64,000 bases of DNA from an uncultured Spirochaetota bacterium (GTDB lineage: Bacteria; Spirochaetota; UBA4802; UBA5550), in NCBI GenBank assembly GCA_963827275.1, contig CAWHAA010000004.1, positions 256,001-320,000 of the forward strand, written 5' to 3'. The notes beneath the pieces are model-generated. The model did no database searches. It was not told the DNA's origin and worked only from the letters and a program-made list of their open reading frames with translations. Below are positions 2,889 through 5,822 of this stretch, in pieces. Position numbers and translations under genes: made by a program. Numbering within the stretch: the stretch's first letter is position 1; each line of letters opens with the position of its first letter.

Positions 2889-4544
2889 TCACGGCTTCAC
2901 CTCGTCGATGAATGTCAGGTCGTCCCTGTTCAGGACGATGATCTTTTTGTCCTGGCGGTTGATGTAGATGTAGTTGTCCCAGAAGCTGATGAAGGTGTTC
3001 TCGCTCAGCTCCTCCTTCGACTTCGCCACGAGCTTCAGGCTCCCGTCGAAGCGGCCCAGGTGGTACACGCCGCTGTCGTAGGTAATCGCGTAGATGAAGC
3101 CGTCCCGGATCTCGATGAAGCTCCGCCAGAAGATGTTGTCGTCGCCGTAGATCTTCGCCTGCAGGGTGTCCTTGTCGACCAGGGTGAGCCGGTGCCCGGA
3201 GGTGTGGCTCCCCCGGTGCGTAATGATGACGATCCCGCCGGAATAGACGTCGTACCTGTTCCCGCAGATGTTCTCCACCGGCGACTTGAACATGATCTTG
3301 CGGGTTGAGGCGTTGATCATGTACAGGTTGTTGTTGTAATGCCCGCCGTCGAGGTATTCCTGGATCTTCAGGTAATAGAGCTTGCCCGCGTAGATGTTCT
3401 TGTCCAGCTCCTTCTCGCGGAGCTTGTCCTCCCGCTTGTCGAGCTCCTTCTCCTTTTCCTCGAGCTTCTTCTTCGCCCCTGCCGGGTCCTTTTTGATGTC
3501 GCGGCTGATCTCGTCCTTCTTTATCTGCTTCTTCTCGTCGTCAATGCTCTTCTTGCGCTCTTCGAGCTTTTTCTTCTCATCGGCGACCGTCTTTTCCTTT
3601 TTCTTTGACGTTTCTTCCTGCTTCTGCGTCTCTTTCTTTTCTGCCGCGAGCTCCTTTTCCTTTTTCTCGATCTCCTTCTCTTTTTCCCTGCGTTTTTCAG
3701 GCTCGATTATTTTTTTTGTCTCTTCTTTTTCCTTTTTCAGGTCCTCTTCCTTTTTCTTGACCTGCTTCTTTTTCCTGTCCAGCGCTTCCTTCTCCTGCTC
3801 CAGCTGCTTCTGCTTTTTTTTCAGCTCGTCCGTATCCTTCTCCAGCGTGCGCTCCCGCAGGTCGGCCATGTTCTTGCGGTCGGGTATGTTTTTGTCGCTT
3901 TTGCGGAGCTGGTCGATGGTCTTCCTGTCGGAAAGGACGTCCGGCTGTATGGCGTCAAGCTTCCCCTTCTGCGCCTCTTCCGTGAGGGGGATCAGCATCT
4001 TCGTCGCGCCGGGCCACTCCCAGTATTTCGTGGAGATGCCCGCGTTCCGCGCCGCTATGTGCTTCATGACGACGCCCTTGTACTTTGATCCGAAGTAGGC
4101 GATGTCGCCGCGGTGCACCGCGTTGTAGTAAGAAAGGAACAGTGCCAGCGTGCGGCCGTCCTTCCGCGAATAGCCGTAGCGCGACGACAGGTACGCCATC
4201 GCGATGCGCCGCACCGTGTCGATGTGCCCGACCTTCGCGTCCCTGTCGATGGAGAAGATGTCGGCGGAGTACTTGTCCGGCTCCTCTTTGGAGACGGCGC
4301 GGATGATGGAATATTTCATGTGGAAGCGGACGGTGCCGGCGTCGCTTCCCTTCGAGAGCTGTCTGCCGATCGCCTCGACCTCGCTGAGCGGGTCGGCCTT
4401 TTTCGGGTCGCCCTTGTAGTTGATGAACTCGACCCGCCTGGTGCGGATTTCGTCCACGTCAACCTCGAGGGCGGCCGCGCCGGCGAGGGGGATGATCGTC
4501 AAAAGGGCTGCAAGGACGGTGCGTGTGATATTGTTTGTTTTCAT
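2889..4544 (-). CDS. P83/100-family spirochaete antigen-like exported protein
   Basis: Signal peptide; VEFINYKG, SADIFSI, LSYYNAVHRGD and WEWPGATKMLIPL segments typical of the P83/100 N-terminus; long K/E-rich coiled coil; C-terminal beta-rich domain. Confidence 0.8.
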   Translation of the reverse strand: MKTNNITRTVLAALLTIIPLAGAAALEVDVDEIRTRRVEFINYKGDPKKADPLSEVEAIGRQLSKGSDAGTVRFHMKYSIIRAVSKEEPDKYSADIFSIDRDAKVGHIDTVRRIAMAYLSSRYGYSRKDGRTLALFLSYYNAVHRGDIAYFGSKYKGVVMKHIAARNAGISTKYWEWPGATKMLIPLTEEAQKGKLDAIQPDVLSDRKTIDQLRKSDKNIPDRKNMADLRERTLEKDTDELKKKQKQLEQEKEALDRKKKQVKKKEEDLKKEKEETKKIIEPEKRREKEKEIEKKEKELAAEKKETQKQEETSKKKEKTVADEKKKLEERKKSIDDEKKQIKKDEISRDIKKDPAGAKKKLEEKEKELDKREDKLREKELDKNIYAGKLYYLKIQEYLDGGHYNNNLYMINASTRKIMFKSPVENICGNRYDVYSGGIVIITHRGSHTSGHRLTLVDKDTLQAKIYGDDNIFWRSFIEIRDGFIYAITYDSGVYHLGRFDGSLKLVAKSKEELSENTFISFWDNYIYINRQDKKIIVLNRDDLTFIDEVKP

Positions 4545-4674
4545 TGTGTGTCTCCGGCATTCTTGTCAGCATGATGGCTGATTCTGGTGTCATGTCAAGA
4601 TACTTGCGGCGTGACGCCGCACCCCATGGCGGGCGTGTGAATTATCCGCCCGGTACCCCGGTATCCAGGCGTAT

Positions 4675-5151
4675 TTATTCTTTGTTCAGGTCGTCCAGTA
4701 CCGCAAGCAGATCGCCGTTTTCGGGAATATCGGACATTGAATTTCCGTAATGCTTGTAGCGTATCATCCCCTTTTTGTCAACGATCAGCTGCGCGGGCAT
4801 CCGGCCGAGTTTGAGGATTTTGACCTGCTGTCCGTAGAGCCTTGATATGCTGTGGTCCGGGTCCGCGAGGCCCACAAAAGGCATCCGGTGTTCATGCCAC
4901 CATTCAGAGAAGGCCTGTGCGCTTTCCGGACCTATGGCGATGACCTCGGCCCCCCGCTTCACGAATTCATCATATTCCTGGCGCAACTGTGCCATGTGCC
5001 TCCGGCAGTATGGTCAGGCAAAACCCCGGTTGAACACAAGGACGACGATTTTTTTCCCTTTATAATCCGAAAGTTGTACCGGCTGTCCGTTGCTGTCCGC
5101 CAGCTGAAAATCCGGCGCAGGGTTCGGCTCTGTTTTTTCGATGTTACTCAC
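4675..5151 (-). CDS. AhpC/TSA peroxiredoxin-like selenoprotein (UxxC; in-frame TGA at 5016-5014)
   Basis: ORFs 5014..5238 and 4675..4995 are in one frame and read APDFQLADSNGQPVQLSDYKGKKIVVLVFNRGFA*PYCRRHMAQLRQ; GTG 5151 preceded by AGGAG. Confidence 0.88.
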
Positions 5152-5387
5152 CAGTGCATCTCCTGACAATTCGTATAATGAAGGAACATTTATCCGGCAG
5201 CTGGCTGGTATGCTATAACGTTCCTTACGAAAAGTCAAGAAGTAATACTGCCCGCGGATCAGGAAGGTTCGACCTGTTCCATGTCGTACCTCAGGAGACG
5301 ACGCCTTGTTCCTGCGCCATTATAACACTTGACTTTTATAAAATAATACGATAAAAGCGTAACTGAAAAAAAACAGGAAGTGCCTCC

Positions 5388-5822
5388 ATGAATAATCCCG
5401 ACAAAGCAGTTGCATATTTCGAAAAAGGTATGAACTGCGCCCAATCGGTGCTCAGCGTGTACGGCCCCCTGTGCGGCCTTGACGCCGGGACCTGCGTCCG
5501 CATCGCGTCGCCCTTCGGCGGCGGCATCGGCCATACCCAGGGGATATGCGGGGCGCTGACCGGCGCGGTCATGGCGATCGGGCTGAAGCACGGCGAGGGG
5601 ACCGCGGAGCGCGACAGGCGGGACCGCATCAACGAGCTGGCGCGCGATTTTATCGATGAATTCAGGAAGCGCAACGGAGACATCATGTGCCGCAGGCTCC
5701 TCGACTTCGACATCACCACCGAGAGCGGCCTGCTCGAGGCGCGGCGCCTTGGAAAATTCGGGGCCTGCGCCGGATATATCCGCTCCGCGGCGGAACTGCT
5801 GGATACGATGCTGCAAGTATGA
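5388..5822 (+). CDS. C_GCAxxG_C_C family putative redox protein
   Basis: NCAQSV, FGGGIG, ICGALTG, MCRRLL and ACAGY cysteine pattern. Confidence 0.9.
   Translation: MNNPDKAVAYFEKGMNCAQSVLSVYGPLCGLDAGTCVRIASPFGGGIGHTQGICGALTGAVMAIGLKHGEGTAERDRRDRINELARDFIDEFRKRNGDIMCRRLLDFDITTESGLLEARRLGKFGACAGYIRSAAELLDTMLQV

Follow-up and report, generated by a model that had tools for sequence, protein, structure and literature searches.

A peroxiredoxin-like UxxC gene with a conserved in-frame UGA, predicted to encode a selenoprotein, in an uncultured Spirochaetota bacterium

Introduction

In bacteria, selenocysteine (Sec, U) is delivered by a dedicated route in which SelD supplies selenophosphate, SelA forms Sec-tRNA(Sec), and SelB recognises a hairpin and carries out delivery. 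One family of bacterial selenoproteins, 'predicted with high confidence' (PMC13188914), consists of peroxiredoxin (Prx)-like proteins of the Pfam family PF00578 that carry a UxxC or UxxU motif. A member from Syntrophus aciditrophicus (NRGFI-U-PYCRRHMAQLR) was entered under 'Prx-like thiol:disulfide oxidoreductase' in a list of selenoproteins (Zhang et al. 2006, PMC1794560, supplement file 4), and there are further records of 225 Prx-like 1 UxxC sequences in ocean data (PMC2398784) and of 32 Prx-like UxxC sequences in 28 organisms (PMC5029168). Sec-containing peroxiredoxins carry the motif TxxU, not UxxC (PMC13188914). In the PRX-like CxxC proteins it is the second Cys that corresponds to the peroxidatic Cys of Prx, the other members of the triad being absent (PMC3514251). 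Use of Sec in spirochaetes is on record for Treponema denticola (PMC1794560) and T. pedis (PMC12013277). Our search, which left subscription papers aside, found no report of an enzyme activity for the Prx-like UxxC family; nor did it find a report of Sec in the uncultured Spirochaetota lineage considered here, although the BSepDB data, also outside the search, may hold one.

Here we describe a gene of this family in a window of 64,000 nucleotides (the whole stretch of DNA that was analysed) from an uncultured Spirochaetota bacterium. It had been proposed, from the letters of the window, as a hidden selenoprotein of a known UxxC Prx-like family, and the 2006 list does contain an orthologue (PMC1794560). 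Compared by eye, the two proteins share NRGF-x-U-PYCRRHMAQLR and a GRLPAQ motif, and a Syntrophus buswellii homologue (L049) is 67% identical over residues 8-155, with a TGA at the same site. The published S. aciditrophicus member comes from a syntrophic deltaproteobacterium, whereas the host here is an uncultured spirochaete, and a mismatch in the stem of the bacterial Sec insertion hairpin (bSECIS) is found only here. Searches of the supplements of PMC11227280 and PMC2398784 did not turn up the MAQLR motif. The gene is a new member of a published selenoprotein family, from a phylum in which Sec use has already been recorded.

Results

A single reading frame is interrupted by one UGA

On reading of the open reading frames (ORFs) and their translations, positions 5151 to 4675 of the window form a single frame of 158 codons on the minus strand, whose sole interruption is the TGA at codon 46 (Table 1). 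As originally described, two ORF-track pieces (5014-5238 and 4675-4995) lie in one frame and are parted by this codon alone. The minus strand around it reads AAC CGG GGT TTT GCC TGA CCA TAC TGC, giving the peptide context NRGFA-*-PYCRRHMAQL. The read-through product matches PF00578 across the TGA (residues 10-132; 108.5 bits, cut-off 26), and the frame runs on to a normal TAA, as had been proposed. By eye, no signal peptide or membrane anchor is evident in the 158-residue product. Three sigma-70-like sites were seen against 1.2 ± 1.1 expected, so that the promoter candidate in Table 1 is a weak one.

Table 1. Features of the Prx-like UxxC gene and its upstream region, in window coordinates.
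Feature	Position	Strand	Basis or remark
CDS, 158-aa Prx-like (AhpC/TSA, PF00578) UxxC predicted selenoprotein	4675..5151	-	complete, GTG (5151) to TAA (4677-4675)
Predicted Sec46 codon, in-frame TGA, first residue of U-P-Y-C	5014..5016	-	homologue codon counts
Cys49, predicted resolving partner of Sec46	5005..5007	-	Cys in 176/176 loci; alignment to Bcp1 3drn
Predicted bSECIS hairpin inside the coding region	4979..4994, loop 4988-4985	-	comparison of homologues
Arg117-Met118-Pro119, Pro119 on the Prx catalytic Arg site	4795..4803	-	R117 and P119 in 176/176 loci; 2ywn profile alignment
Shine-Dalgarno-like AGGAG, 8 nt 5' of GTG	5160..5164	-	sequence reading
Weak sigma-70-like promoter candidate TTGACT-17-TAGCAT, 9/12	5210..5238	-	motif scan

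The UGA codon is conserved in homologous loci

We collected 176 homologous loci (16 from relatives, the window's own included, 80 genome contigs and 80 metagenome contigs), of which 2 are cut by contig ends, leaving 174 readable at codon 46; the set holds 157 distinct sequence contexts. The codon is TGA in 173 of the 174 and TGT in one, with TGG, TAA and TAG in none, which bears out the expectation that relatives conserve it. This count includes kin and duplicates, hence rows that are not independent, and it overstates how exclusive Sec is at the site, since the ranking of loci followed their similarity to the C-terminal 106 residues, which begin at the hairpin peptide. The peptide patterns that retrieved the 160 genome and metagenome loci were confined to the C-terminal half. 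Among 47 full-length database homologues, position 46 is Cys in 12, as it is in locus L041, in agreement with the proposal that the TGA occupies the place of the first Cys of a CxxC motif; it is Trp in the other 35.

An alternative would be that the TGA arose from faulty sequencing or from a simple nonsense mutation, with the 106-residue C-terminal ORF as sole product or as a pseudogene remnant. Such C-terminal fragments of about 106 residues do make up 73 of the 120 protein-database matches listed, and frames are broken elsewhere in this assembly. The same TGA is nevertheless present across many phyla and is never replaced by TAA or TAG; the upstream half of the gene is as conserved as the downstream half, with synonymous sites free outside the hairpin; and the C-terminal fragment would be without the entire active site. 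Public contigs cover the TGA site, and none of the 40 difference rows listed (of 113) touches 5014-5016. An error or nonsense mutation is thus extremely improbable.

We attach just as little weight to the decoding of UGA as Trp (genetic code 4) or Gly, which would give a WxxC protein and which could draw on the Trp of the 35 database homologues. TGG is absent from all 174 DNA loci (the DNA behind the Trp proteins lies outside that set), TGA terminates 723 of 1577 long coding-like frames in the genome, and the only tRNA with a UCA anticodon is tRNA-Sec, the tRNA-Trp having CCA. Given the lack of TGG, the Trp in these proteins is likely a gene-caller artefact, probably stemming from code-4 calls on short contigs, and we infer that the 106-residue fragments are artefacts of gene calling as well.

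A few loci depart from the common pattern. L155 and L062, which share one translated match, have a second TGA at query position 31 beside the Sec TGA, likely a nonsense change of an Arg codon. One family-level relative (G021) holds both the Cys copy L041 (on C109; TGT, with altered hairpin sequence) and a divergent TGA copy, L023 (on C33; with a different hairpin sequence). In relatives, L030 (in G025) and L036 (in G023) encode another selenoprotein, which is a true Prx (TxxU) with F-T-x-x-U-x-G-E-L; the PF00578 matches of the window's genome include no TGA form of this kind.

The genome encodes the Sec decoding machinery

The original prediction had named selA, selB, selC and selD as the genes to look for, and all four are present over curated cut-offs in the window's genome (4.13 Mb, 92% complete). 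The genes selC, selA and selB adjoin in this order on contig C8, with the tRNA-Sec scoring 73.2 bits against RF01852 (cut-off 47; ARAGORN anticodon TCA, that is, UCA in RNA) and open frames for selA (486.7 bits, cut-off 267.9) and selB (298.1 bits, cut-off 242.25). On C10, selD (373.9 bits, cut-off 125) has an in-frame TGA of its own, in SSG-U-AAK. Of the genus, family and order, 61 genomes were compared: 52 have selA and 57 have selD over the cut-off, and all 52 selA-positive genomes carry a TGA-bearing selD; the nine selA-negative genomes comprise four with a stop-free selD, four in which no selD was found and one (65% complete) with a TGA-bearing selD. This co-distribution is as Sec decoding predicts, though kin among the genomes are not independent.

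A near-invariant predicted bSECIS hairpin carries a mismatch in the window's strain

Comparison of the homologues places a predicted bSECIS hairpin just downstream of the UGA, with nucleotides 20-25 after the UGA paired to 30-35 (6 pairs) and an AGUU loop 25 nt downstream. The loop is AGUU in 155 of the 157 contexts and each stem pair is kept in 151-156; pair 22:33 is G-C in 135 and G-U in 21. With the stem so nearly invariant, two-sided compensatory changes are essentially absent. The constraint is visible in the codons, since codons 54-57 are GCG in 99%, CAG in 100%, TTG in 99% and CGC in 86% of contexts, against a family background of 26%, 75%, 17% and 37%, respectively; at codons 54-56 the synonymous entropy amounts to 0-3% of background, whereas other conserved residues mostly show free synonymous variation. 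The AQLR peptide encoded by the hairpin region persists in 169 of the 173 TGA loci versus 2 of the 12 Cys-form proteins, which fits a constraint driven by RNA structure. A 12-nt core, GCGCAGUUGCGY, recurs in 168 of the 173 TGA loci, which carry nine NCBI phylum labels between them, some perhaps through mis-binning.

The consensus bSECIS has a loop of 3-9 nt with a G in the first two loop positions, lies 16-37 nt after the UGA, and has a stem of 4-16 bp (PMC13188914). The window's hairpin agrees in loop size, loop G, spacing and stem length, with 5 pairs in this strain: its codon 54 is GCA, which puts an A.C mismatch at 4990 and is unique among the 157 contexts. As a 24-nt fold it reaches -5.4 kcal/mol (z -0.83), against -10.8 in two relatives and a limit of -7.5 or lower in the consensus model, whose folding window need not match ours (PMC13188914). 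Folds of 60-100 nt from the UGA contain neither the hairpin nor any significant structure (z 0.2-0.7), so that, with plain folding of the window's sequence negative, it is through comparison of homologues that the hairpin is detected.

The mismatch raises the question of whether, in a true selenoprotein family, this particular hairpin is so weak that UGA mostly acts as a stop, leaving a gene that is poorly expressed or in early decay. The unique GCG-to-GCA change disrupts a stem pair that 155 of the 157 contexts retain and halves hairpin stability, and at 4990 GCG prevails in the public contigs of close strains. On the other hand, the frame is otherwise intact, the protein is 89% identical to that of its nearest relative, loop sequence and spacing are unchanged, and about 13% of catalogued bacterial selenoprotein entries are without a canonical SECIS (PMC13326102). 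One near-identical public contig (X1 record 1, depth 5) also appears to share GCA, which bears on the reality of the allele and not on its function: in run X1, 5.0 of a depth of 85.6 keeps the window's base at 4990, which equals the depth of this contig, so that the allele is probably real (the sharing being deduced from depths). We consider it unlikely that UGA mostly terminates translation here, and prefer Sec insertion by read-through that, given the mismatch, may be weaker in this strain.

With the full decoding machinery in the genome and with the UGA and its hairpin kept in relatives, the UGA is very likely read as Sec, as had been proposed for this spirochaete from the sequence of the window; taken alone, the predicted recoding of codon 46 has a very high probability.

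Thioredoxin-type active site anatomy on a peroxiredoxin-like scaffold

An AlphaFold2 model of the product (pLDDT 90.3, pTM 0.88) has a BCP/AhpE-like thioredoxin fold, the best structural match being Bcp4 (3hjp; TM 0.86, 24% identity). With BCP/PrxQ and AhpE it has in common the fold (TM 0.83-0.86, about 25% identity), the Pfam family and the placing of Cys49 at the peroxidatic position. In a profile alignment to solved peroxiredoxins, U46 takes the place of the Thr in PxxxTxxC, R42 that of the Pro and C49 that of the peroxidatic Cys. P119 aligns with the catalytic Arg of 2ywn and would correspond to the cis-Pro position of thioredoxins; R117 lies two residues before the Prx Arg position and needs a gap to align with the Arg of 3drn. 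All 176 loci share C49, G116, R117 and P119. The Prx motif PxxxT/SxxC(U) is missing, R-G-F-A-U-P-Y-C standing against P-K-D-D-T-P-G-(C) of Bcp1, as is the catalytic Arg before a beta strand. Judged by these alignments, the active site is one of thioredoxin-type anatomy on a Prx-like scaffold, and the original term 'peroxiredoxin-like' holds for the fold but not for the catalysis.

Comparison with named families gave a similar placement. The best NCBIfam match is the SelL-related redox protein NF040769 (87.7 bits, E 6.5e-25, residues 11-107), below its cut-off of 120. Relative to the Sec-containing peroxiredoxins (TxxU, PrxU), Sec is here at the Thr site and not the peroxidatic site, and a Pro is at the catalytic Arg site; the PrxU model NF040737 gives 33.2 bits against a cut-off of 270. 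The likeness to PRX_like2-type CxxC proteins lies in the second Cys on the Prx peroxidatic Cys (PMC3514251). A CxxC-type site and a Pro before a beta strand are shared with ResA/TlpA proteins, for which NF002854 gives 57.4 bits (cut-off 170) and solved ResA chains match at E 1e-11; unlike these, the window's protein is without a visible membrane anchor or signal peptide, and Sec replaces the first Cys.

Selenols readily reduce peroxides, and it is conceivable that Sec is inserted into what is an atypical peroxidase, with Sec46 or Cys49 attacking H2O2 or organic peroxides and Arg117, kept in every locus, replacing the Prx Arg. The top matches in sequence and fold, BCP/PrxQ and AhpE (3drn E 2.4e-16; 3hjp TM 0.86), would suit such an enzyme. 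Its signature, however, is lost at several points (Arg for Pro, Sec for Thr, Pro119 on the Prx Arg), all NCBIfam Prx models are far below cut-off (for example PRK09437, 50.3 versus 140), and Sec-containing peroxiredoxins carry TxxU, not UxxC (PMC13188914). A peroxidase is therefore possible but rather improbable. With Sec at the Prx Thr and Pro119 at the Prx Arg, a thiol-disulfide oxidoreductase is, on these sequence comparisons, the likely function.

The genome contains further selenoprotein candidates

Three FdhA genes have an in-frame TGA in AR[I/L]-U-H (C5:386743, C5:371544 and C9:113417; L203-L205), and a HesB-like gene has one in GFG-U-GGP (C6:101741, L206; NF038090 60.2 bits, cut-off 85). 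In each of the four, the TGA lies within a family match, the scanned pieces being below whole-protein cut-offs. Together with selD and the Prx-like gene, this makes at least six predicted selenoprotein genes, and six is the threshold for 'selenoprotein-rich' in PMC1794560. The count is a minimum, as the Prx-like gene itself went undetected in two de novo scans that used coding potential to look for TGA read-through. A motif regex scan for Sec sites gave mostly noise, and a self-tblastn search for Cys/TGA pairs recovered the Prx-like gene as its only convincing case.

TGA candidates L207-L211, L213 and L214 were rejected or found unsupported, with no family match over the TGA, and most are adjacent genes sharing a frame. 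One of them, L207 (C6:93706, minus strand), is a long frame with a C-terminal rhodanese domain; the TGA after its closing GGCG is more probably an ordinary stop codon, ahead of a DnaJ-domain gene, than a terminal Sec. Near C5:414773, on the minus strand, a frame change apparently interrupts a fourth molybdopterin gene. In the same genome, none of the MvhD, NiFe hydrogenase and glutaredoxin matches contains a TGA, the only junction in HdrA is a TAA, the other PF00578 matches have no internal stop, and GrdB/PrdB gave no match, the control being equally silent.

The gene stands alone and was probably acquired horizontally

A P83/100-family gene (2889-4544; PF05262 E 2e-69) adjoins the Prx-like gene. 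On the other side, 5388-5822 (plus strand) holds a divergent C-GCAxxG-C-C redox gene (PF09719; TIGR01909 over cut-off), of a family that includes selenoproteins, and is followed by a glycerophosphodiester phosphodiesterase gene. We rejected the redox gene as a partner: it contains no internal stop, and apart from the window it adjoins the Prx-like gene at a single locus (L012) of those searched. The neighbours are likewise common to only one other locus searched, and the gene is a stand-alone unit. A G+C hairpin at 4571-4620 lies directly upstream of a sigma-70-like TTGACA-16-CATCAT (10/12), before the P83/100 gene. The RNA-labelled public run X19, probably DNA, covers only 4617-4821.

The GC3 of the gene (0.64) is within the lowest 1% of 1955 long genes, the comparison being with longer genes. 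The closest named loci, at 86-88% identity, are labelled Spirochaetota and Leptospirales; from the sequence, these loci and the P83/100 gene are the basis for assigning the DNA to a spirochaete. In a tree of 40 rows (of 93), seven same-genus copies, the window's included, group with Syntrophales and Dehalococcoidia, and five others fall among Chloroflexota; monophyly of the twelve, a group picked after a quick-mode 93-row tree, was rejected (p-AU 0.0007). Two horizontal gains within the genus are thus likely, with a Syntrophales/Dehalococcoidia gene pool as the likely candidate source of the window's copy and the direction of transfer a proposal. A plasmid search returned six distant records, with no informative annotation.

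Discussion

We put at roughly 0.9 the probability that 5151-4675 is one intact gene in which UGA is recoded to Sec, with a cytoplasmic thioredoxin-fold thiol-disulfide oxidoreductase acting through U46-x-x-C49 as the predicted product. SelD would make the selenophosphate and SelA the Sec-tRNA(Sec), and SelB would bind the AGUU-loop hairpin and bring Sec to the UGA. As the anatomy of the active site suggests, the Sec46 selenolate would be the nucleophile, Cys49 would resolve the intermediate to a selenenylsulfide, and a cellular thioredoxin-type system would re-reduce it. As a putative role, disulfide or oxidant repair in an oxygen-stressed anaerobe is the likeliest, and we hold a thiol-disulfide oxidoreductase to be probable over a peroxidase.

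The gene is not broken: it is ordinary biology that gene callers overlooked, in a family in print since 2006. Its significance is mainly one of annotation, as no NCBIfam model reaches its cut-off for this subfamily and databases hold fragments or Trp forms. More tentatively, the subfamily could be a portable selenium cassette, a stand-alone gene with a near-invariant bSECIS core readable by the SelB of distant phyla, the window's strain then carrying a natural weakened allele that lowers read-through. If true, this would explain the repeated horizontal spread of the gene, including two entries into one genus. The invariant core and the natural mismatch allele also form a simple test pair for cross-phylum recognition by SelB. 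For the organism, the finding means that an uncultured spirochaete lineage very likely uses Sec, with six or more predicted selenoprotein genes, where the cases that we found in the literature are from Treponema; and, as 52 of the 61 genomes have selA, decoding of Sec is the rule in this spirochaete order.
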